Assembly: GCA_038065915.1 (NCBI GenBank)
Contig: JBBTPZ010000002.1
Coordinates: 18,714 to 69,625, forward strand
Direction of reading: 5' to 3'
Source of the DNA: Patescibacteria group bacterium
Lineage (GTDB): Bacteria; Patescibacteriota; Minisyncoccia; Phycocordibacterales; 21-14-all-36-13
DNA length: 50,912 nt
A program made the position numbers and the translations under genes. Every line of letters begins with the position of its first letter. Within the stretch, counting starts at the first letter, position 1. Shown piece after piece: positions 4,038 through 45,086 of the stretch. Below the pieces are notes generated by a model, which saw only the letters and a program-made list of their open reading frames with translations, was not told where the DNA came from and did not search any database.

Positions 4038-4114
4038 ATATGTAGAAAAATTAAAGATAGTTTTTTTCAGAAAAAAACACCGGAGTTGCAGGAACAATAA
4101 AAATTCCAAATCTT

Positions 4115-4354
4115 TTGACTCTAACAGGATATTATGAGTCAATTAAGACAACATCTGGTTTTGTTACAATTACCCTTGGCAATTTAGGTGACCCATATTC
4201 TTGGTTTGTATATGATAGAACCAAAAAAACTTGGTCAAGTGAAATTGGCTGGACAAAAAAATATTCAATTGATACTAAAACCCATATTCTTGTTGGTTTC
4301 GGATATTTTCCTGAAGCAAAAATGTTTAATACTTATTTTTGGATACATCTATAG
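4115..4354 (+). CDS. hypothetical small aromatic-rich protein (79 aa, TTG start)
   Basis: Lies between the promoter at 4009-4037 and the terminator at 4368-4398. No SD and no ATG start, so an RNA-only transcript is possible. Confidence 0.4.
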   Translation: MTLTGYYESIKTTSGFVTITLGNLGDPYSWFVYDRTKKTWSSEIGWTKKYSIDTKTHILVGFGYFPEAKMFNTYFWIHL

Positions 4355-4367
4355 TTTAGATGTACCA

Positions 4368-4398
4368 AAACCGGCGATTCACATCGTCGGTTTTTTTT
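4368..4398 (+). terminator. intrinsic terminator
   Basis: ACCGGCGA-TTCACA-TCGTCGGT stem followed by T8. Confidence 0.7.
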
Positions 4399-4418: not shown

Positions 4419-4456
4419 TCTACACCTATCTCTGCTATCGCAAAGATAAGTGTAGA
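4419..4456. repeat. family A hairpin (core CTGCTATCGCA, stem class TCTACA)
   Basis: TCTACACCTATCTCTGCTATCGCAAAGATAAGTGTAGA. Two C-A mismatches become G-U pairs on the minus-strand RNA. T6 follows on the minus strand. Confidence 0.9.
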
Positions 4457-4460
4457 GACT

Positions 4461-5009
4461 TTATAATTCAAATTCATCCTTTAATAAATCTTCATTACTG
4501 ATTTTTTCTGTTTCAAGAAAGATTATGTGTTTTGAAACACCAAAATATTCTCCAATAAATTTGATTTCCTTTTTGCATTCATATGGGGTAATAAAAACCG
4601 ATTTCTGTATTGGAGCACATCCAATTCTTATCAATTTTAGGGTTAATCCATCTCTGGCTGTTTTATGTTTTTCTGGAATATCAAACATTATTATTCTCCA
4701 AATCCCATCCCACCCCTTTTGCTCTTTTATCTTTATTTCATCTATTTTGTATTTCAAAATCTCTTTTCTTCCATTTTCTGTTATTTCAATTACATCAATT
4801 CCTTCTTTTTTATATTTTTTAACATATTTTTTGTTTTCTAATCTATCTATTGCTCGTCTAATTTTCTCCTTTTCTTTCCATGCTTCCGCATCAAACATTT
4901 TATAGACAAGAGGTAATTGTGGAAGTGCCATAGAACCAATTACAAAAGTTGCCCCCACTATTGCTTTTAATATATCTTTAGCTAATTCTCCTCTACTGTG
5001 TTTTTTCAT
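4461..5009 (-). CDS. PaaX-family / Cas2-fold-like small protein, paralog 1 (182 aa)
   Basis: WDGIWRIIMFDIPEKHKTARDGLTLKLIRIGCAPIQKSVFITPYE matches the Cas2-like beta-alpha-beta core seen in PaaX-type proteins. Collinear paralog at 41512..42060. Confidence 0.8.
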   Translation of the reverse strand: MKKHSRGELAKDILKAIVGATFVIGSMALPQLPLVYKMFDAEAWKEKEKIRRAIDRLENKKYVKKYKKEGIDVIEITENGRKEILKYKIDEIKIKEQKGWDGIWRIIMFDIPEKHKTARDGLTLKLIRIGCAPIQKSVFITPYECKKEIKFIGEYFGVSKHIIFLETEKISNEDLLKDEFEL

Positions 5010-5050
5010 ACAAATTATTTTTTGAATGCCACCTTACCCCTCTACATCTA

Positions 5051-5088
5051 TCTCTGCTATAGCAGAGATAGATGTAGAAAGAATTTCT
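5051..5088. repeat. family A hairpin (stem class TCTACA)
   Basis: Perfect palindrome TCTACATCTATCTCTGCTA/TAGCAGAGATAGATGTAGA, ~40 nt upstream of the paralog 1 start. Confidence 0.9.
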
Positions 5089-5174: not shown

Positions 5175-5214
5175 TTCTACACTTATCTTTGCTATCGCAA
5201 AGATAAGTGTAGAA
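5175..5214. repeat. family A hairpin (stem class TCTACA)
   Basis: TTCTACACTTATCTTTGCTATCGCAAAGATAAGTGTAGAA, directly after the murG stop. Confidence 0.9.
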
Positions 5215-8056: not shown

Positions 8057-9109
8057 CTACTTTAGTAGTGCAATAATAACTCCAACAAATGCAAATACAA
8101 CACTTATTACCCAATAACGCATTGTGACTTTATATCCCGGCCATCCTTTTGCTTCAAAATGATGATGTATTGGTGCTACAAGAAAAATTTTTTTCCCTCG
8201 CAATTTTTTAGACAAAATCTGAATAATATCGGAAAGTGTTGTTATGACTAAAGGAAAAGCAATGATTGGTAAAACAAGAACTTCTTTTGTTAAAAATGCA
8301 ACAACGGCCAAAGTCATTGTTAGTGCCATACTTCCTGTCTCTGACATATAAAATCTTGCTGGTGGAATATTAAACCACAGAAATGCAAGCAGACCACCAA
8401 CTATAACAAAACTAAAAGTCGCTAAATCAACTTGGTTTTGAACAAATGCTATTACTCCGTATGCTGAAAATGCGGAAGAAAAAACTCCACCGGCAAGTCC
8501 GTCAATTCCATCGATAACACCACCAGAATAAATACCAAGCATAACAATTATAAAAAATGGTATAAATAATAATCCTATATCAAGATCTCCAACCAAAGGT
8601 ATGGCGACAGATGTCATTTCAAGTTTTGAGTAAAACCACCAAGCACCTATCAGAGATACAACAAAAACAACAAGTAATCTCTTTTTTAAAGATAAACCGC
8701 CGGCGAGATGGTCTTTCTTTCCTTTCACTTCAAAATAGTCATCAATCAAACCTATGACCGCTCCTACCAAGAGAGTAAATAATGGCAACCATGTTTGATT
8801 TCTGCTGAAAAAATCTAATTTAGAAGTTATTTCAAAATTAAAAATATAAGGCAGTATTAAAAATAATAATGTAGTTAAAATTACACTCCCCCAAATTAAT
8901 ATTCCGCCCATTTTAGGTGTCCCGACTTCTTTTCCTTTGTGTAATTTATTAAAAATAGGAGTATCTTTTCCATCCATTCCTACCTTCCCTGATTTTTTTT
9001 TCCACATTTTATGCTTGTATAAATAACTTATCAAAACAGGAGCAAAGCCAATGCCTATCAAGAAAGCAATCGCCGATGGTGTAAATACTTTTATTATGTT
9101 TATTATCAT
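8057..9109 (-). CDS. mraY: phospho-N-acetylmuramoyl-pentapeptide transferase
   Basis: GTPKMGGILIW, DDYFEVKGK and APIHHHFE motifs. Confidence 0.95.
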   Translation of the reverse strand: MIINIIKVFTPSAIAFLIGIGFAPVLISYLYKHKMWKKKSGKVGMDGKDTPIFNKLHKGKEVGTPKMGGILIWGSVILTTLLFLILPYIFNFEITSKLDFFSRNQTWLPLFTLLVGAVIGLIDDYFEVKGKKDHLAGGLSLKKRLLVVFVVSLIGAWWFYSKLEMTSVAIPLVGDLDIGLLFIPFFIIVMLGIYSGGVIDGIDGLAGGVFSSAFSAYGVIAFVQNQVDLATFSFVIVGGLLAFLWFNIPPARFYMSETGSMALTMTLAVVAFLTKEVLVLPIIAFPLVITTLSDIIQILSKKLRGKKIFLVAPIHHHFEAKGWPGYKVTMRYWVISVVFAFVGVIIALLK

Positions 9110-10486: not shown

Positions 10487-10534
10487 TTTACCCCGTGGAA
10501 TAAAATTCTAAAGAATTTTATTCCACGGGGTAAA
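10487..10534. repeat. perfect 22-bp-stem hairpin with a 4-nt loop
   Basis: TTTACCCCGTGGAATAAAATTC-TAAA-GAATTTTATTCCACGGGGTAAA, 6 nt upstream of the carboxypeptidase start. Confidence 0.9.
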
Positions 10535-10575
10535 TATTAACATCTTTACTCTATATTTTCAAAATCTACCTTATT

Positions 10576-16819: not shown

Positions 16820-16856
16820 AATCCCTCTCTGCTAGCAGAGAGGGATTTTTTATTTT
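16820..16856 (+). terminator. intrinsic terminator; variant of the family A core (CTCTGCTAGCAGAG)
   Basis: AATCCCTCTCTGCTAGCAGAGAGGGATT plus a T-run. Confidence 0.75.
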
Positions 16857-16915: not shown

Positions 16916-17012
16916 CAGCCAATTTAAATTTAATTTATTGTCAAATTAATAATACTCCATAGGGTCGCCATATCTCTGCGATAGCAGAAATATGGCGACC
17001 AGTTTTTGTTTT
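16916..17012 (+). ncRNA. candidate small RNA 3 (weak)
   Basis: TTGACA at 16880-16885 with an imperfect -10 (CATATA/TATACA). No ORF. Ends in the family A hairpin 16963-17000 plus TTTTTGTTTT. Confidence 0.3.
16963..17000. repeat. family A hairpin (stem class GTCGCC)
   Basis: GGTCGCCATATCTCTGCGATAGCAGAAATATGGCGACC. Confidence 0.9.
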
Positions 17013-17038: not shown

Positions 17039-18661
17039 CTACAGGGTAAATTTTTTTGAATTCAATTCAACATAAAACTCTGCGCCCTTACCTTCCCCAT
17101 CTGATTCAGCCCAGACCTTGCCGTTGTGCGCTTCTATAATTTTTTTAACTATATATAAACCAAGCCCTGTTCCTTTAACATTAACTTTATTTGCATTATT
17201 TGCTCTTCTGAATAATGTGAATAATCCGGATAATTCTTTTTCTGGAATCCCGACACCACTATCTGAAATAGAGAATAATATTTTTTTATTACTATCAATT
17301 TTTTTAAGTTCAGTTTTTACCCAACCATATTTTGCGTACTTCAGCGCATTATCTATCAAATTTGTTATTACTTGTTTAAATTTGCCTATATCAATTTTCG
17401 CATTGTACTCTGCAGATTTATCATAATTAAAAGAAAACTCCAAACCTGATTCATCTATTGATGGTTTCATTTCATTTATTACACTTTCTATAATTTCATT
17501 TATTTTTGCCGTTTCAAATTTATACTCCATTCTTCCCTGCTCTATCCGCGAAACATTTAAAAAGTCCTCAACTATCATTGCGAGATTGTTTGTAGAATCA
17601 AACATATTTTTAACAGGTTGCTTTATTTTGTCATCAATTTTTCCGTATGACCCTTCCATAATTAATGAAGCATATCCTTTTATTGCGGAAAGTGGACTTC
17701 TAAATTGATGCGACGCAATAGATAAAAATTCTGATTTTTGTCTATCTAACTCTTTTAATTTTACATTTGCATCTTCCAATTTTGCGTTTGTTACTTCTAA
17801 ATCTTTTGCAAGTTTTTCAATTTTTTCTCTCGTGCTGATTTCTTTTAGAACACTCTTAATAAGCAAAATGCCTAATATTACCATAACAGACAATAAGACA
17901 ACTTCTATTATTTTATCTTGAATATTGCTAGCGAGTAAGATTCTTCCGAACAAGAAAAACCAAATAGAGAATACCAACAATTGTGTGGCGAGGACTTTAA
18001 TATTTAATAATTGATATTTAAAAATAGAATATACTACAACCAGAGCAGAAATAAGAATAGTTATATTATAAACTGGGTAAACATAAATTCCGTAAACAGG
18101 GAAAAAAGAAGTTGCTCCACCTGCAAAACCAACAATAAAGGCAAGAATGAGATATTGTATTTGGTGTTTAACGACAGGATTTTTACTTTTATTTAATTCC
18201 TTATAAAGAATGAAGATGTTATAAATTGCCAACAATAAAAATAGTGTGACCATCGTGGTATAAATTGGCGTTGGTGTGATGTAATAGAATTGATTAAAAA
18301 TAAAACGAACAGGCCCAAAAAAATAATCGGTAAATATATCAAAAAATAAAAAAATAAAAGATATAAAATACAGTACAAATATTAATTTTTTTTTGGAATA
18401 GTTTAAAAATTCATAAACAAAATGTGTTAAAAATACTGGAATAAAGATAACCCCAATTTCTGCAATACGCCACCAAAAAACAGAATTTTCCAATTCAACA
18501 GATGACGCAAATTTAAATATTCCAAAACCCCACAATGCAACAGATGTAGAAAAAAGCCCCCAAATAAAATGGATTTTTTGTTTTGTGTTTACGAAAGAAT
18601 AAACAGCCAATACGACTGAAGCAATAGCAATGATTAAACCTACTATCGAAAGAATATTCAT
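17039..18661 (-). CDS. sensor histidine kinase with multi-TM (7TM-type) N-terminal domain
   Basis: H-box SIASHQFRSPLSAI, N-box DNALKY, and G-boxes DSGVGI and GTGLGLYIV. About 8 hydrophobic spans in the first 270 aa. Confidence 0.9.
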   Translation of the reverse strand: MNILSIVGLIIAIASVVLAVYSFVNTKQKIHFIWGLFSTSVALWGFGIFKFASSVELENSVFWWRIAEIGVIFIPVFLTHFVYEFLNYSKKKLIFVLYFISFIFLFFDIFTDYFFGPVRFIFNQFYYITPTPIYTTMVTLFLLLAIYNIFILYKELNKSKNPVVKHQIQYLILAFIVGFAGGATSFFPVYGIYVYPVYNITILISALVVVYSIFKYQLLNIKVLATQLLVFSIWFFLFGRILLASNIQDKIIEVVLLSVMVILGILLIKSVLKEISTREKIEKLAKDLEVTNAKLEDANVKLKELDRQKSEFLSIASHQFRSPLSAIKGYASLIMEGSYGKIDDKIKQPVKNMFDSTNNLAMIVEDFLNVSRIEQGRMEYKFETAKINEIIESVINEMKPSIDESGLEFSFNYDKSAEYNAKIDIGKFKQVITNLIDNALKYAKYGWVKTELKKIDSNKKILFSISDSGVGIPEKELSGLFTLFRRANNANKVNVKGTGLGLYIVKKIIEAHNGKVWAESDGEGKGAEFYVELNSKKFTL

Positions 18662-23992: not shown

Positions 23993-24083
23993 CAAAAGAT
24001 TAAACCACTTTCTAATTCGCGCGAATTAGAAAGTGGTTTCTGCCTAGTAATTTAGTGATTTTATGTTTTTAAAAATACAAAAT

Positions 24084-24955: not shown

Positions 24956-25330
24956 TTAAATTTTTACTTTTAAGTATTCTTTTATTCTTTCTTTATCTTC
25001 TATTTCTTTTTCACCTTTGAAATAAATTCCAATAAAATCTACTATTTCAGTTTCTATATGAAAAGCATATATAATCCTTATGCCACTTTTTATACCGCGT
25101 CCTTTTAGTGACTTACAGGCAAATTTTTTGAGTTTGCAGATTATTATTTTTTCAGAACAAAAATTAGGAATTGGAAATATCGCTTGCTTATTTATTTTTT
25201 GTAAATGAAATAATTCAATAGCAAAAGTTTTTGCTGTTTCAATATCTTCATTAAGGGAGGAAAATTTTTTTAGAAGTTCTTTAAGATCCTTTTGAAATTC
25301 TTTTGTATTTTTATAATTAATCTTCGCCAT
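24956..25330 (-). CDS. RelE/HigB (Gp49-like) superfamily toxin candidate
   Basis: GIKSGIRIIYAFHIETEIVDFIGIYFKGEKEIEDKERI resembles the RelE/HigB C-terminal core. 14-nt overlap with the upstream antitoxin gene. Confidence 0.65.
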   Translation of the reverse strand: MAKINYKNTKEFQKDLKELLKKFSSLNEDIETAKTFAIELFHLQKINKQAIFPIPNFCSEKIIICKLKKFACKSLKGRGIKSGIRIIYAFHIETEIVDFIGIYFKGEKEIEDKERIKEYLKVKI

Positions 25331-26096
25331 AGATTCTCACCGATGTTTCTGGAGTCCTATAAAATACTGACTCATAGCTTATAATTTTACCATCTTCCGT
25401 CCCTACCCATGGCACATCTTTGTGAGAATAGTCACTTAATTCCATTGCAGATTTATCAGAAAGTCTAAAAAGAACATCATCAATATGTTTTATTTCTTGA
25501 GCATTTAAAATAGAAATATTAGATTGTCTACGAGGTAAATATTTCGTTTGTTCATGTAAAAAGTATTTACTTTTTACTGTTTCTAATTCCCCTTTTGATT
25601 CTAAACTTTCAACGATTTTTTTAAATTCCACGGGGGTTGGGCCAAAATGATTTTTTATATATGTTGCCCCAAGTAATTGTTCTTCAAATTTTTCGTAATA
25701 ATCAAAATCAATAAAATAAAGGAGTTTATATAAAACCGTCATTCCAACATTTGGTTTACTGCCAACTTTTTCTAATATATACAATAATACTTCTTTAAAT
25801 TTTTTAAGATTTTTTTGTGGTATATCAATACGAATTTCTTGCACTTCCTTTCTTTTTTTTTCTTTCTTAAAAAAAATTTTTATTTCAGAATTTTTTTTAC
25901 CAGCAATTAGTGCTTCAAGAGAAAGATTAAAAATTTCAGCAATTTTTTGAGCCTGTGAAAGAGTTAGTTCTTTTGTTCCCTTCTCAATTTCAATATAACT
26001 AGCTCGAGAAACACATATCTTTTGAGCCATAAAGGCCTGAGAAAGATTATTGATTTTTCTCAATTCTAATAGAAATGTATGTTTAATCATATTCAT
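25317..26096 (-). CDS. XRE-family HTH fused to a DUF4065 (Panacea/SocA-like) antitoxin domain
   Basis: HTH: LSQAFMAQKICVSRASYIEIEKGTKELTLSQAQKIAEIF. DUF4065-like: VLYKLLYFIDFDYYEKFEEQLLGATYIKNHFGPTPVEF. The start is ATG 26096 or 26090; the ORF-track start at 26162 is a TTG. Confidence 0.8.
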   Translation of the reverse strand: MNMIKHTFLLELRKINNLSQAFMAQKICVSRASYIEIEKGTKELTLSQAQKIAEIFNLSLEALIAGKKNSEIKIFFKKEKKRKEVQEIRIDIPQKNLKKFKEVLLYILEKVGSKPNVGMTVLYKLLYFIDFDYYEKFEEQLLGATYIKNHFGPTPVEFKKIVESLESKGELETVKSKYFLHEQTKYLPRRQSNISILNAQEIKHIDDVLFRLSDKSAMELSDYSHKDVPWVGTEDGKIISYESVFYRTPETSVRIYGED

Positions 26097-26098
26097 AT

Positions 26099-26126
26099 AG
26101 TATAGTCGTAAAAAATCATATGTCAA
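26099..26126 (-). promoter_or_regulatory. leaderless-type promoter TTGACA-N16-TATACT
   Basis: TGTCAA at 26121-26126 and AGTATA at 26099-26104 on the + strand. ATGs lie 2 and 8 nt downstream. Confidence 0.55.
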
Positions 26127-26206
26127 TATTTTAGACAAACCAAATGTGGATAAACTTGACAAGCAAAAATTGAAAATAAAACAATCGTCATTTTTCTTGT
26201 TTTTTT

Positions 26207-27442: not shown

Positions 27443-27482
27443 ATTATGGATTCAAACGCTCATTAAGAGCGTTTGAATTATG
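27443..27482. repeat. family B hairpin
   Basis: ATTATGGATTCAAACGCTC-ATTAA-GAGCGTTTGAATTATG. Confidence 0.85.
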
Positions 27483-27483
27483 A

Positions 27484-27514
27484 ATGAAAATTGTCGCTAA
27501 ACGACAATTTTCAT
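27484..27514. repeat. family C hairpin
   Basis: ATGAAAATTGTCGCTAAACGACAATTTTCAT. The right arm contains the dnaK TGA stop. Confidence 0.85.
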
Positions 27515-29385
27515 TTAGTTTCCGCGTCGTGTATCGTTCCATCATCTTCTTTTTTTCCTTCTTCTGGCTTTGTTTGTGTTTGCGCATTTTTTTGAATTTC
27601 TTCTCCTATTTTAGACATCTCGGAAGATAGTTCTTCTGTTGCCTTTTTAATCTCATCCACTTCATTCCTATCTTTTATTTTTTTAGCATTATCAATTTTT
27701 TCCTGTAAGTTTTTCTTTAAATCATCTGAAATTTTATCAGAATTTTCAGACAATGACCTTTCTGCGGTATAAACAACTTGGTCTAAAAAATTTCTTGCAT
27801 CCATTAATTCTTTTTTCTTTTTGTCTTCTTCTTCGTGTAATTCAGCATCTTTTTGCATCTTTTTTATATCATCTTCAGACAATCCGGATGTTGCTTCTAT
27901 TTTTATTGATTGTTCTTTTCCTGTTGATTTATCTTTTGCTTTCACATTGAGAATTCCGTTTGCATCTATATCAAAAGTAACCTCAATCTGCGGCATTCCT
28001 CTTCTTGAAGGAGGTATTCCATCCAAAACAAATCTGCCCAAACTTTTGTTGTCATTTGCCATAGGTCTTTCTCCTTGGACAACATGAATTTCAACGGATG
28101 TTTGATTGTCAGCAGCGGTAGAAAAAACTTGTGATTTTGATGTAGGTATTGTTGTATTTCTTTCAATTAATTTAGTTGCAACACTACCAAGAGTTTCTAT
28201 ACCAAAAGATAGTGGAATTACATCAAGAAGTAAAACATCTTTTACATCGCCTCTTAAAATTCCAGCTTGAACAGCAGCACCCAAAGCAACCACTTCATCC
28301 GGGTTAATTGACTTGTTTGGTTCTTTCCCGAATAAGTTCTTTACGGCTTTTTGAATCGCAGGCATCCTTGTCTGTCCGCCAACAAGAACTACTTCATCTA
28401 TATCAGAAATTTTAAATGGGGATGCTTCCATGGCTCTTTTTGTTATTTCAATTGATTTATCAATATATTCTTTAACTAAATCTTCAAGCTTTGCTCTTGA
28501 AAATTTCATTAATAAATGTTTGGGACCATCGGCATCTGATGTTATAAAAGGTATATTTATTTCTGTTTCGGTAGAACTGGACAATTCGTGTTTTGCTTTT
28601 TCAGCCGCTTCGTCCAATCTTTGTAGCGCCAAAGAATCTTTTGTAATATCTATGCCACTTTCTTTTTTAAATTCACTAGCAATCCATTTTATTATTTTTT
28701 GGTCTATATCTTTTCCGCCCATATGACTATCGCCGTCTGTTGATTTAACTTCAACCACATCATCTCCCACTTCAAGAACGGAAATGTCAAATGTTCCGCC
28801 ACCAAAATCAAAAACTACTATTTGTTCATTTTTCTTTTTATTAAAACCATAAGCCAGAGCGGCTGCGGTCGGTTCATTTATAATTCTTTTTACATCCAGC
28901 CCGGCTATTTTACCGGCATCTTTTGTCGCCTTTCTTTGTGAATCATTAAAATACGCGGGAACAGTAATAACGGCCTCTGTTATTTTTTCTCCTGTTTTTG
29001 CCTCCGCGTCGGTCTTTATTTTTTGAAGTATTATTGCAGAAATTTCTTCCGGTCTATATTTTTTATCCCCGAGTGTAATTAAAACTCCACTGTCATTTCC
29101 TTTGGTTATTTCGTAGGGGACAATTTCTTTATCTTTTTGGACTTCCTTATCGTCAAAACGATGTCCCATAAATCTTTTTATTCCAAAAACCGTATTTTTA
29201 GGGTTAGTAACCGCCTGTCTTTTGGCAGAAATTCCAACAATTCTTTCGCCAACTTTCGATAAAGCAACAATAGACGGTGTGGTTCTAGCCCCGTCAGAAT
29301 TTTCTAAAATTTTTGGTTCTCCGCCCTCAATAACGGCAAAAGCTGAATTTGTCGTTCCTAAATCAATTCCTAAAATTTTGCTCAT
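27511..29385 (-). CDS. dnaK: chaperone DnaK (Hsp70)
   Basis: [17 protein letters not shown] and [10 protein letters not shown] motifs; 624 aa. Confidence 0.98.
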
Positions 29386-30158: not shown

Positions 30159-30310
30159 GGAGCATAACACAAAAAAAATAATTATGGATTCAAATGCTCC
30201 CATGGAGCATAACACAAAAAAAATAATTATGGATTCAAATGCTCCCATGGAGCATAACACAAAAAAAATAATTATGGATTCAAATGCTCCCATGGAGCAT
30301 TTGAATTATG
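30159..30310. repeat. tandem repeat, 45-bp unit x3 plus a terminal complete family B hairpin
   Basis: Units GGAGCATAACACAAAAAAAATAATTATGGATTCAAATGCTCCCAT at 30159, 30204 and 30249. No spacers. Confidence 0.9.
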
Positions 30311-38058: not shown

Positions 38059-38098
38059 AGGTCGCCATATCTCTGCTATCGCAGAGATATGGCGACCT
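38059..38098. repeat. family A hairpin (stem class GTCGCC)
   Basis: AGGTCGCCATATCTCTGCTATCGCAGAGATATGGCGACCT, perfect, just after the alaS stop. Confidence 0.9.
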
Positions 38099-41421: not shown

Positions 41422-41463
41422 AATTTTATTTTAACATATTTTCCATAAACTTTTGTAAAAACA

Positions 41464-41503
41464 AGGTCGCTCTATTTTTGCGATAGCAGAAATAGAGCGA
41501 CCT
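41464..41503. repeat. family A hairpin (stem GGTCGCTCTAT, core inverted: GCGATAGC)
   Basis: AGGTCGCTCTATTTTTGCGATAGCAGAAATAGAGCGACCT, just after the paralog 2 stop. Confidence 0.9.
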
Positions 41504-41511
41504 TAAATAAT

Positions 41512-42060
41512 TTACAACTCAAACTCATCTTTTAAAGAATCTTCATTACTAATTTTATTTGTTTCAAGGAAAATTATATGTTTTGCAATATCGAAGTATT
41601 CTCCAATAAATTTAATCTCCTTTTCGCATTCGTATGGACTAACAAAAACCGATTTTTGTATTGGAGCACAACCCATTTTTATCAATTTTAAGGTTAATCC
41701 ATCACGAGCCGTTTTCTTTTTTTCAGGAATATCAAACATTATTATTCTCCAGATGCCATCCCATCTTTTTTGTTCTTTTATTTTTATTTCGTCTAATTTA
41801 TATTTTAAAACTTCTTTTCTTCCATTTTCAGTTATTTCAACGACATCAATCCCTCCTTTTTTATATTTCTTTACATATTTTTTATTTTGTAATCTATCCA
41901 TTGCTTTTCTTACTCTTTCCTTTTCTCTTTTGTCTTCCGCATCAAACATTTTATAAATCATGGGTAGTTGTGGTAATGCAAGAGAAGAAACAAGAAATGC
42001 TGTTCCAACAAGTCCTTTTAAAATATTTTTCATTATTTCTCCATTTCTATATTTCTTCAT
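41512..42060 (-). CDS. PaaX-family / Cas2-fold-like small protein, paralog 2 (182 aa)
   Basis: Gap-free alignment with 4461..5009. By eye about 40 differences in 182 positions. Confidence 0.8.
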   Translation of the reverse strand: MKKYRNGEIMKNILKGLVGTAFLVSSLALPQLPMIYKMFDAEDKREKERVRKAMDRLQNKKYVKKYKKGGIDVVEITENGRKEVLKYKLDEIKIKEQKRWDGIWRIIMFDIPEKKKTARDGLTLKLIKMGCAPIQKSVFVSPYECEKEIKFIGEYFDIAKHIIFLETNKISNEDSLKDEFEL

Positions 42061-42076
42061 ATATTTTATTAAATGA

Positions 42077-42085
42077 ATTATATCA
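42077..42085 (-). promoter_or_regulatory. extended -10 TGaTATAAT, 16 nt before the paralog 2 ATG
   Basis: ATTATATCA on the + strand. Confidence 0.45.
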
Positions 42086-42098
42086 TTTTAAAATATGA

Positions 42099-42138
42099 GA
42101 GCCCACCCTACTCTGCTATCGTAGAATAGGGTGGGCTC
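42099..42138. repeat. family A hairpin (stem class GAGCCCACCC)
   Basis: GAGCCCACCCTACTCTGCTATCGTAGAATAGGGTGGGCTC. Confidence 0.85.
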
Positions 42139-42215
42139 AAGAATAAAAACAAAATAAAAAACAAAATAAGAATAAAAACAAAACAAGAATAAAACAAAAT
42201 GTTTACACCCTCTTT
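42139..42215. repeat. A-rich low-complexity tract (AAGAATAAAAACAAAA-like units)
   Basis: Read directly from the sequence. Confidence 0.7.
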
Positions 42216-42260
42216 ATCACCATTTATTATTTTTCGTGTTATTATTTTCCATTTATTCTA

Positions 42261-42300
42261 TAGTCGCCACATCTCTGCTATCGCAGAGATGTGGCGACTA
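42261..42300. repeat. family A hairpin (stem class GTCGCC)
   Basis: TAGTCGCCACATCTCTGCTATCGCAGAGATGTGGCGACTA, perfect. Confidence 0.9.
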
Positions 42301-42312
42301 TTATAAAATATA

Positions 42313-42942
42313 TTATATAAAATTTTTCAAAATCAAAAAATCCTCTTTAAGTGTATCTTTGGTTTTATTGTTATAAATTGCGACTGCTGGATGATACAAA
42401 ACAGCTATTTTTACATCTCCATATTTTGCCTTCGCATCAAATACCTTGCCATGCATTTGACCTATTGGTAAAAGTTCTGATTCAAGACCAAACTTTCTCA
42501 TTATATAATCCATTGAATACCTCCCAAGTGTCGCAATAACTTTGGGCTGAATTATATTTATCTGTCTATCTAAAAATGGCCCATAAATTTTAACTTCATC
42601 TGGCAAAGGGTCTCTGTTTTGTTGTGGTCTGTCTTTTAAAATATTTCCGATATAAATATCCTCTCTTTTTATTCCTGCATTTTCAAGAAGTTCATCTAGA
42701 ATTTTCCCGGCGGAACCACAAAATGGTCTGCCCGTTTTTGCTTCATTCAATCCAGGCGCCTCTCCTATAAACATAATTTTTGCATTATGACTTCCCTCTC
42801 CTATAACAGGAAAATAATGGTTTTCTTTTCTATATTCGTACAAAGGAGATGTTGTTAAATTTAAAACCTCATCGCGAATTTGTTTCATTAATTCTTTTTT
42901 ATTTTCATCACCCATATTTTTTATTTTAAACAAACGGGACAA
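42313..42942 (-). CDS. uracil-DNA glycosylase, family 4
   Basis: FIGEAPGLNEAKTGRPFCGSAGKIL. The start may instead be the Met at codon 10 (42915). Confidence 0.9.
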   Translation of the reverse strand: MSRLFKIKNMGDENKKELMKQIRDEVLNLTTSPLYEYRKENHYFPVIGEGSHNAKIMFIGEAPGLNEAKTGRPFCGSAGKILDELLENAGIKREDIYIGNILKDRPQQNRDPLPDEVKIYGPFLDRQINIIQPKVIATLGRYSMDYIMRKFGLESELLPIGQMHGKVFDAKAKYGDVKIAVLYHPAVAIYNNKTKDTLKEDFLILKNFI

Positions 42943-45042: not shown

Positions 45043-45086
45043 AAAAGTCGCCGTATCTCTGCTATCGCAAAGATACGGCGACTTTT
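45043..45086. repeat. family A hairpin (stem class GTCGCC)
   Basis: AAAAGTCGCCGTATCTCTGCTATCGCAAAGATACGGCGACTTTT. Confidence 0.9.

Follow-up and report, generated by a model that had tools for sequence, protein, structure and literature searches.

A truncated PaaX relative with a Cas2-like domain and the cognate palindromes on both sides of its genes in Patescibacteria

PaaX, the Escherichia coli repressor of the phenylacetate catabolon (PDB 8a39), has an N-terminal winged helix followed by a Cas2-like middle domain and binds palindromic operators at promoters. In REP/RAYT systems (TnpA-REP), extragenic palindromes of ~40 nt flank a cognate gene, different paralogues have palindrome versions of their own, and solo copies are dispersed. 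Features of both were found in a 50,912-nt stretch of DNA (here called the window; 29.8% G+C) from a member of the Patescibacteria (assembly GCA_038065915.1, contig JBBTPZ010000002.1, positions 18,714 to 69,625), the genome being sampled over these ~51 kb only. The window contains two genes for a 182-aa protein of PaaX-like type, termed paralogue 1 and paralogue 2, which correspond by exact protein match to locus tags AAB334_00175 and AAB334_00375. Each gene is bracketed by palindromes of one family (family A), some of which also occur as solo copies elsewhere, as in REP/RAYT, although this dispersal was seen in the window lineage only. The stable stem-loops right after stop codons, with T-runs after the copies downstream of both paralogues, are a likeness to intrinsic (Rho-independent) terminators, while weak matches to Cas2 models and a conserved Asp at the end of beta-1 recall the Cas2 and VapD nucleases. 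The protein and the palindrome very probably work together. The reading that we favour tentatively, and would give somewhat less than an even chance, is that a dimeric protein binds its own ~40-bp dyad sites for autoregulation or insulation.

The protein and its family

The two proteins aligned without gaps and with 142/182 identities (78%; BLASTP E value of 3e-103), matching the preliminary description, in which a gapless alignment with about 40 differences in 182 positions had been counted by eye. The same description had taken paralogue 2 for the second copy of a Cas2-fold/PaaX-like gene, and this assignment was borne out by a Pfam match, an AlphaFold2 (AF2) model and Foldseek. The PaaX_M family (PF20803, 'central Cas2-like domain') was matched over residues 98-174, with 75.6 bits for paralogue 2 and 73.1 bits for the other copy against a cut-off of 24. 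In the AF2 model of paralogue 2 (predicted local distance difference test score of 78.8), an N-terminal winged-helix region (helices 6-21, 31-38 and 44-59 and a beta-hairpin, 63-76) is joined through a linker helix to a C-terminal Cas2-fold (PaaX_M) domain, which has Cas2-like secondary structure over residues 104-179. The top Foldseek match of this model was E. coli PaaX (8a39), followed by Rv0674, 3l09, Cas2 structures (probability of 0.97-0.99) and MarR/PadR proteins.

Sequence comparisons gave weak profile matches to winged helix-turn-helix proteins, the Pfam winged-helix matches being sub-threshold, and weak matches to Cas2 models and to 3exc. The scores for Pfam Cas2 (PF09827; 20.7 versus a threshold of 23.8) and NCBIfam cas2 (TIGR01573; 23.6 versus 24.5) both fell below threshold, and the NCBIfam PaaX equivalog (TIGR02277) scored 39.5 bits, not reaching the cut-off of 264.55. 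PADLOC returned only Cas2 matches of sub-threshold appearance, a search of the Cas2-like domain by sequence against the PDB gave nothing usable, and some homologues are annotated 'Cas2' in public records. No Pfam match to the PaaX_C domain was detected in paralogue 2, the protein stopping after the Cas2-like domain, and none to an HUH/Y1 transposase domain. Because the best structural match was PaaX and PaaX_M was present but PaaX_C absent, the protein was termed 'mini-PaaX'. The model indicates that paralogue 2 is a truncated PaaX relative, with a predicted winged-helix DNA-binding domain, a helix and a Cas2-fold domain.

An alignment of 204 diverse family members revealed three invariant residues, D110 (the Cas2 catalytic-Asp position, at the end of beta-1), S137 and G80, and ~98% conservation of W100, R119 and P142. 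The Cas2-type motif FDIPE...R...QKSVF was kept, with its invariant Asp, and no His was conserved among these members. Among 1.84 billion cluster representatives, a profile search detected 6081 clusters at an E value of ≤1e-3 and 1068 at ≤1e-30. At least 567 loci were confirmed in species-representative genomes, and the best 80 were nearly all labelled as Patescibacteria lineages or as unclassified bacteria. A scan of viral contigs yielded one weak match only (L107), without informative context, and full-text literature searches turned up no paper that describes the family or its architecture.

The neighbours of 156 family genes were diverse housekeeping genes. DNA-metabolism genes among them encoded DnaE (four times), UDG (three times), RecR, DprA, RNase H and HII, HolB, UvrB and UvrC. 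No phenylacetate catabolic (paa) genes were present in this survey or among the UDG, PCMT, PD-(D/E)XK, peptidase M16, AlaRS, MurG and FtsW neighbours of the two loci. Neither cas1 nor a CRISPR array was seen among the neighbours examined, and the palindromes were irregularly placed rather than arrayed. No recombinase was found among the neighbour families listed, in a scan that did not cover every open reading frame (ORF) of the window.

Palindromes beside the genes and elsewhere

The three hairpins that had been reported around paralogue 2 were confirmed, with slightly extended ends for two of them (Table 1). The downstream palindrome begins 8 nt past the stop codon and has 19-bp arms with 95% complementarity and a 4-nt loop; TGTTTTTAC comes next on the gene strand, so this hairpin looks like a terminator. 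The start codon of the peptidase M16 gene is 42 nt away, with the palindrome on its upstream side. The upstream-proximal palindrome has 16-bp arms separated by 8 nt and ends 38 nt from the ATG, and the upstream-distal one, with 19 perfect bp and a 4-nt loop, is located 12 nt past the stop of the UDG gene (42313..42942) and 200 nt before the start of paralogue 2. The RNA folds of the downstream, proximal and distal copies had energies of -28, -32 and -37.4 kcal/mol, respectively, with z scores of -9.5, -7.5 and -11.9 relative to shuffles; no Rfam match at gathering thresholds was detected anywhere in the window. Paralogue 1 has the same three-hairpin layout, its proximal copy ending 31 nt ahead of the ATG, and outside the coding sequences the two loci align at the hairpin cores only. 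The core GCTATCGC was present seven times in the window, counting either strand, versus an expectation of 0.12. The cores had been described as the same or inverted; GCTATCGC is indeed shared, but the proximal copy of paralogue 2 has GCTATCGT, which differs from it by one mismatch.

Ten family-A copies were found in the window. All three of the callable intergenic regions adjoining the paralogues contained a hairpin, compared with 3/44 others (Fisher p = 0.0012). Similarly, 5/10 of the hairpins were located within the 6.7% of intergenic sequence that adjoins the paralogues (by length, p = 2.5e-4). A T-run follows the downstream copies of both paralogues (41463-41504 and 4419-4456) and is absent after 42260-42301 (on the gene strand), 5175-5214 and 45043-45086. 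Between its proximal palindrome and its ATG, paralogue 2 has an extended -10-like motif, TGATATAAT, at 42085..42077, which was read directly from the sequence. A promoter scan did not flag this motif, its candidates in the spacer being weak ones only (TTTAAA/TTAAAA...TAAAAT, ending at 42063), but TGATATAAT may be a promoter element of paralogue 2.

Both loci were conserved in close relatives. The genes of loci L002, L005, L007 and L093 encode proteins with 76-84% identity and have the same synteny, with the order PD-(D/E)XK, PCMT, UDG, [gene], peptidase M16 and AlaRS at the paralogue 2 locus (L002 and L005) and MraY, FtsW, MurG and [gene] at the paralogue 1 locus (L007 and L093). Family-A palindromes were present on both sides of all six clade genes, i.e., the two paralogues of the window and these four genes, and in L002 and L007 the two gene-flanking copies were the only ones in 20.5 kb. 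The flanking copies of L002, L005 and L007 are imperfect (>1 mismatch) and were identified by reading the flanks directly. The outer stems varied between clade genomes, while the apex CTGC-(T/G)AT(C/A)-GCAG was constant and common to both paralogues. The outer stems of the two window loci differ as had been claimed, but in L005 the upstream-proximal copy of the paralogue 2 orthologue is of the TCTACAC type, as at paralogue 1, and hence the stem class does not track the paralogue. The possibility that the outer stems were prior terminator stems invaded by a mobile core was rejected, the stems belonging to a few related classes that are not independent. A T-run followed the downstream palindrome in 4/6 clade genes, and the orientation of the loop (GATA or TATC) relative to the gene was variable. 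A protein identity matrix of the 76-89% homologues was star-like and did not separate the orthologues of paralogue 1 from those of paralogue 2. The conserved synteny and the single genomic context of identical proteins indicate that the paralogues are old syntenic residents and not recent duplicates or mobile cassettes.

Bracketing extended across the family. In a survey of 82 loci (1.29 Mb), strict palindromes (a stem of ≥14 bp and a loop of ≤4 nt) were 39 times denser within 120 nt of the ends of PaaX_M genes than elsewhere (79 observed versus 3.4 expected). A strict palindrome was found on both sides of 23/84 family genes but only 5/1147 other ORF-genes (odds ratio of 86, p = 5e-24), and the upstream and downstream flanks had an exact string of ≥12 nt in common for 42/84 genes versus 3/80 controls. 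For 66/85 distant Patescibacteria homologues, the local-alignment score between the upstream and downstream flanks exceeded the 99th percentile of cross-locus controls. In length the elements range over 32-74 bp (36-52 bp for most), and they are often perfect, with recurring centres such as TGCTATAGCA, GCGATCGC, ACGATCGT, GTCATGAC, GCCATGGC and GCGACCGC; nearly all have a conserved AT dinucleotide at the centre, within TATA, GATC or CATG. The arms are identical on both sides of one gene and different between genomes. Furthermore, paralogues within one genome have different elements (L011/L012, L014/L024, L019/L020, L047/L052/L072, L038/L070, L063/L085 and L065/L080), indicating that the partner of the element is the product of the adjacent gene rather than a shared host factor and that the binder is gene specific. 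This family-wide bracketing with paralogue-specific palindromes supports the earlier proposal of a functional link rather than chance. That proposal would have been refuted by relatives with the paralogues but no adjacent hairpins, or by a hairpin density at the background level beside the genes; the relatives had the hairpins, and the density was far above background.

The anatomy of the sites was not uniform. Imperfect sites (L026, L027, L038, L059, L061 and L069) consist of 6-8-nt outer inverted repeats and a central motif at fixed spacing, with incomplete complementarity; such poorly folding sites favour recognition of duplex DNA by a symmetric dimer. Upstream sites usually end 1-40 nt ahead of the predicted start, and in 15/44 of them a -10-like hexamer begins within ~5 nt of the 3′ end of the site. 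A T-run was found after only 5/51 downstream sites, suggesting that these elements are not generic terminators. Within ±10 kb, most lineages have only the two flanking copies, and only 10/109 of the other palindromes had a 10-mer in common with them. Two arrangements stood out. At L087 (3111-7261, next to uvrA), a single palindrome (AACCAGTTAT.T.GTCATGAC...) is present in six copies, which delimit a run of four genes (a 280-aa gene, a family gene, uvrC and a second family gene) and give it the look of a cassette array. At L068 (~8380-8460), a 37-nt G+C-rich insertion that forms a hairpin interrupts the downstream dyad at its exact centre (GCGACC | GGTCGC).

A reciprocal scan of metagenome contigs for the apex pattern detected 19 loci. 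Two of these, L096 (4613-5823) and L100, were rejected as family-A loci and left out, as they contain an unrelated 40-nt-unit satellite (GCTATCTCTGCGTGCATTTAGCTATCTCTGCGCAGAGATA, ~29 copies) from an unrelated organism. Most of the hairpin-seeded loci had no family gene, indicating that the palindrome is also dispersed in the window lineage. The term hairpin-bracketed 'unit' therefore stands for both paralogues insofar as they are bracketed, but not for the family-A hairpins dispersed away from the genes. The hairpin copies were in 12 convergent, 14 tandem and 4 divergent contexts, and the dispersed ones favoured gene 3′ ends. The copy past alaS in the window (38059-38098) was missing from the same spacer of L002 and L005, these spacers being too diverged for exact insertion boundaries to be placed. 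In L088 (Ga0265292_1000087, a 192-kb contig shared with L002), murG is followed by one TCTACAC...GCTATAGC...GTGTAGA palindrome (10505-10544), the conserved terminator and the downstream gene, without paralogue 1; this locus represents an empty site or else the scar of a deletion. Identical copies of protein P0012 always had one genomic context, as did those of P0030 (22 and 24 contigs, respectively), and within the mraY-ftsW-murG cluster the intergenic position of the family genes varied with the lineage.

Table 1. Paralogues, family-A palindromes and associated features of the window
Feature	Position	Strand	Basis or remark
Paralogue 2, 182-aa mini-PaaX	41512..42060	-	ORF list, PF20803 match, AF2 model, Foldseek
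Family-A palindrome downstream of paralogue 2	41463..41504		Hairpin scan and RNA folding
Spacer, proximal palindrome to ATG of paralogue 2	42063..42098	-	Read from sequence
Upstream-proximal family-A palindrome of paralogue 2	42099..42138		Stem GAGCCCACCCTA, core GCTATCGT
A-rich tandem repeat	42139..42200		Period of ~11 or 17, consensus AAGAATAAAAACAAAAT
Upstream-distal family-A palindrome of paralogue 2	42260..42301		Hairpin scan and RNA folding
Paralogue 1, same protein type	4461..5009	-	ORF list, BLASTP, PF20803 match
Downstream palindrome of paralogue 1, TCTACAC stem	4419..4456		TTTTTT next on gene strand
Upstream-proximal palindrome of paralogue 1	5041..5078		Perfect, symmetric centre GCTATAGC
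Upstream-distal palindrome of paralogue 1	5175..5214		5 nt past murG stop codon
Short variant AATCCCTCTCTGCTAGCAGAGAGGGATT	16820..16847		Perfect, family-A inner arm, zero-length loop
Dispersed family-A copy	16962..17001		37 nt past histidine-kinase gene stop
Dispersed family-A copy	38059..38098		20 nt past alaS stop codon
Dispersed family-A copy	45043..45086		Between convergent genes

Several other features of the window were recorded. The A-rich repeat occupies the gap between the two upstream palindromes of paralogue 2 and has no counterpart at paralogue 1, and 115 nt separate the short palindromic variant from the full copy (16962-17001). Downstream of paralogue 1, a plus-strand stretch (4061-4351) is probably the truncated remnant of a 261-aa gene, intact copies of which are present in L007 (10649-11434) and L088; its match to that gene is limited to the last 96 residues at the C terminus, with 60% identity. 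A canonical terminator hairpin is found past the stretch, at ~4367-4394. Two long perfect palindromes, at 10487-10534 (23-bp arms, between the D-Ala-D-Ala carboxypeptidase gene and scpB) and 24002-24039 (19-bp arms), are unrelated in sequence to family A. The 185-aa gene beside the former, a 48-bp palindrome, was considered as a third family member and rejected, as it encodes ScpB. Further recurrent hairpin families (ATGAAAATTGTCGC..GCGACAATTTTCAT, ATTCAAAYGCTC...GAGCRTTTGAAT and CTTTGAAAGCTC...GAGCTTTCAAAG) were noted at 28-99, 27450-27515 and 30278-30306 of the window, at 18259-18287 and 18840-18868 of L002 and at 18886-19132 of L005. Several of those in L002 and L005 adjoin ribosomal-protein genes (S13, S11 and S4), and these families may be lineage-specific terminators or attenuators. 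A 281-aa protein with HTH_3 and SocA/Panacea antitoxin-like domains is encoded on the minus strand at 25317-26162, between dnaJ and a small ORF, and may be a toxin-antitoxin or defence-related protein.

Possible functions of the protein and its palindromes

In the autoregulatory reading, the Cas2-fold domain would most likely form a dimer, as in Cas2 and PaaX, and this dimer would recognise a dyad-symmetric site of ~40 bp, the specific part of which in the window clade would be the apex ATCTCTGC-(T/G)AT(C/A)-GCAGAGAT. Each family gene would have a cognate site immediately ahead of its start, by or over the promoter, and another just past its stop. With cognate sites on both sides of each gene, the protein would most likely repress and/or insulate the transcription unit that encodes it, and perhaps the neighbouring gene too. 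The downstream site may double as a hairpin terminator in the window clade. The near-perfect, hairpin-forming palindrome of the window lineage has also spread to other intergenic spots, mostly gene 3′ ends, and there the same protein would serve as a roadblock, a terminator factor or a regulator.

Several observations weigh against this reading. Residues D110, S137 and R119 are 98-100% conserved in the 204 family members, and for this reason a nuclease activity is possible. The outer stems vary among 35 distinct clade copies and yet are complementary within each site. In these copies, which had been preselected for at least 13/20 pairs, 90.9% of cells were paired versus 68.7% in shuffles, 146 double-change cells were counted versus 44 in shuffles, and compensatory changes were present in 16/20 pairs. 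Such covariation points to a hairpin/cruciform role or to arm-to-arm homogenisation, since it would not be selected for by a dimer of fixed specificity. Furthermore, the PaaX_M gene was absent from 15/17 genuine hairpin-seeded metagenome loci, being present in two, and many copies are located between convergent genes or right after stops, where an operator makes little sense. The autoregulatory dimer does not explain why the outer stems covary or why the active-site Asp of Cas2 is so strictly conserved, and these two points keep alive explanations based on a REP/RAYT-like system, an RNA hairpin or a recombination cassette. This Cas2-fold family, with at least 1000 clusters at 50% identity and essentially restricted to Patescibacteria, might act enzymatically on its own flanking palindromes once these are extruded as hairpins or cruciforms, generating, homogenising or moving them as a nuclease or recombinase; we regard this as unlikely.

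A REP/RAYT-like system would involve a structure-specific Cas2-fold nuclease that recognises a single-stranded DNA hairpin or cruciform and creates, spreads or maintains copies, with the solo palindromes as its non-autonomous progeny. The covariation of the outer stems and the (near-)invariance of D110, R119 and S137 of the Cas2 core would be accounted for, as would the dispersal in the clade of extragenic palindromes of one family (including the gene-less hairpin-seeded loci and the alaS-downstream copy of the window), the presence of cognate copies on both gene sides with different palindromes at different paralogues, and the central AT common to nearly all sites. The protein, however, has neither an HUH/Y1 domain nor a conserved His, and Cas2-fold proteins are not known as DNA transposases. 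Moreover, most lineages have only the two flanking copies within ±10 kb, and the imperfect sites of several subfamilies are poor hairpins, so that this explanation also appears doubtful, with a small chance of being correct. Control at the level of RNA is distinctly less probable: the palindromes would be transcribed as hairpins in the 5′ and 3′ untranslated regions of the family gene's own mRNA and at the 3′ ends of others, and the protein would bind or cleave them and so set mRNA stability or translation, with the winged helix reading the RNA hairpin and the Cas2 fold serving as the RNase. As RNA, the hairpins have a very high stability (-26 to -37 kcal/mol), stem covariation is strong, many upstream copies end just 1-20 nt ahead of the start codon and leave little promoter room, and dispersed copies favour gene 3′ ends. 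Some Cas2 and VapD proteins are reported to be RNases (PMC3351183, PMC10491678). Sense-strand G-T mismatches outnumbered A-C mismatches (40 versus 26 overall and 26 versus 14 in downstream copies), but this excess is slight and does not extend to upstream copies (14 versus 12). The variable GATA/TATC loop orientation and the lack of an Rfam match also count against an RNA role, and both the perfect zero-loop palindromes and the sites with outer inverted repeats only would suit double-stranded DNA better.

A recombination cassette, in which the palindrome is a symmetric core site like attC or pdif and the gene excises with one palindrome as a circle, leaves a solo copy and re-enters at other solo palindromes, is very unlikely. 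It could explain the solo palindrome of L088 at murG without paralogue 1 as an 'empty site', and would fit the varied positions in the mraY-ftsW-murG cluster, the four consecutive L087 genes delimited by six palindrome copies and the dispersal of solo palindromes. Ordinary homologous recombination between 40-bp direct repeats, however, explains L088 equally well, identical proteins always have one context, both loci are syntenic at ~80% identity, and no recombinase gene adjoined the units among the neighbours scanned. Finally, family A might be the lineage's common terminator or REP element, with no specific link to the gene and adjacency due to chance or short-gene geometry. Hairpins do also occur after alaS, the histidine-kinase gene, UDG and murG, and T-runs follow the downstream copies of both paralogues, but the in-window p values of ~1e-3 to 3e-4, the restriction of copies in L002 and L007 to the gene flanks over ~20 kb, the family-wide bracketing with lineage- and paralogue-specific sequences and the scarcity of T-runs after downstream sites across the family make this explanation extremely improbable.

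Comparison with known systems and significance

Mini-PaaX differs from PaaX in being ~120 residues shorter, in lacking PaaX_C and nearby paa genes and in keeping FDIPE...R...QKSVF with the invariant Asp, and its putative sites are 36-60-bp dyads on both sides of the gene. Unlike Cas2 and VapD nucleases, it scores below the Cas2 gathering thresholds and is fused to a winged helix; there is no cas1 or CRISPR array nearby, and two or three bracketing palindromes take the place of a spaced array. Relative to REP/RAYT, an HUH/Y1 enzyme is missing, copy numbers appear low and, outside the window lineage, the palindromes are mostly confined to gene flanks. In contrast to intrinsic terminators, family-A copies have a conserved apex that is shared with copies upstream of starts, mostly have no T tract and have paralogue-specific sequences. 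The difference from integron attC/pdif cassettes is that identical proteins keep one context, with no recombinase among the neighbour families listed.

In Patescibacteria (Candidate Phyla Radiation), regulators that can be recognised are very few, and no function is known for the majority of the conserved small proteins. A very large uncharacterised family is now tied to a concrete, synthesisable partner, a ~40-bp cognate dyad on both gene sides, and offers dozens of natural protein-site specificity pairs, making its function directly testable. If mini-PaaX is only a repressor or insulator, its 'bracketed' autoregulatory design would be unusual. If the palindromes are processed, the family would be a new kind of system for handling repeats, based on the Cas2 fold, with a bearing on how the association of Cas2 with palindromic repeats arose. 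An enzymatic role would thus add a 'repeat plus Cas2-like protein' system comparable to REP/RAYT or to cassette recombination but built on a different fold, and would show the action of a Cas2-type protein on palindromic repeats outside CRISPR.

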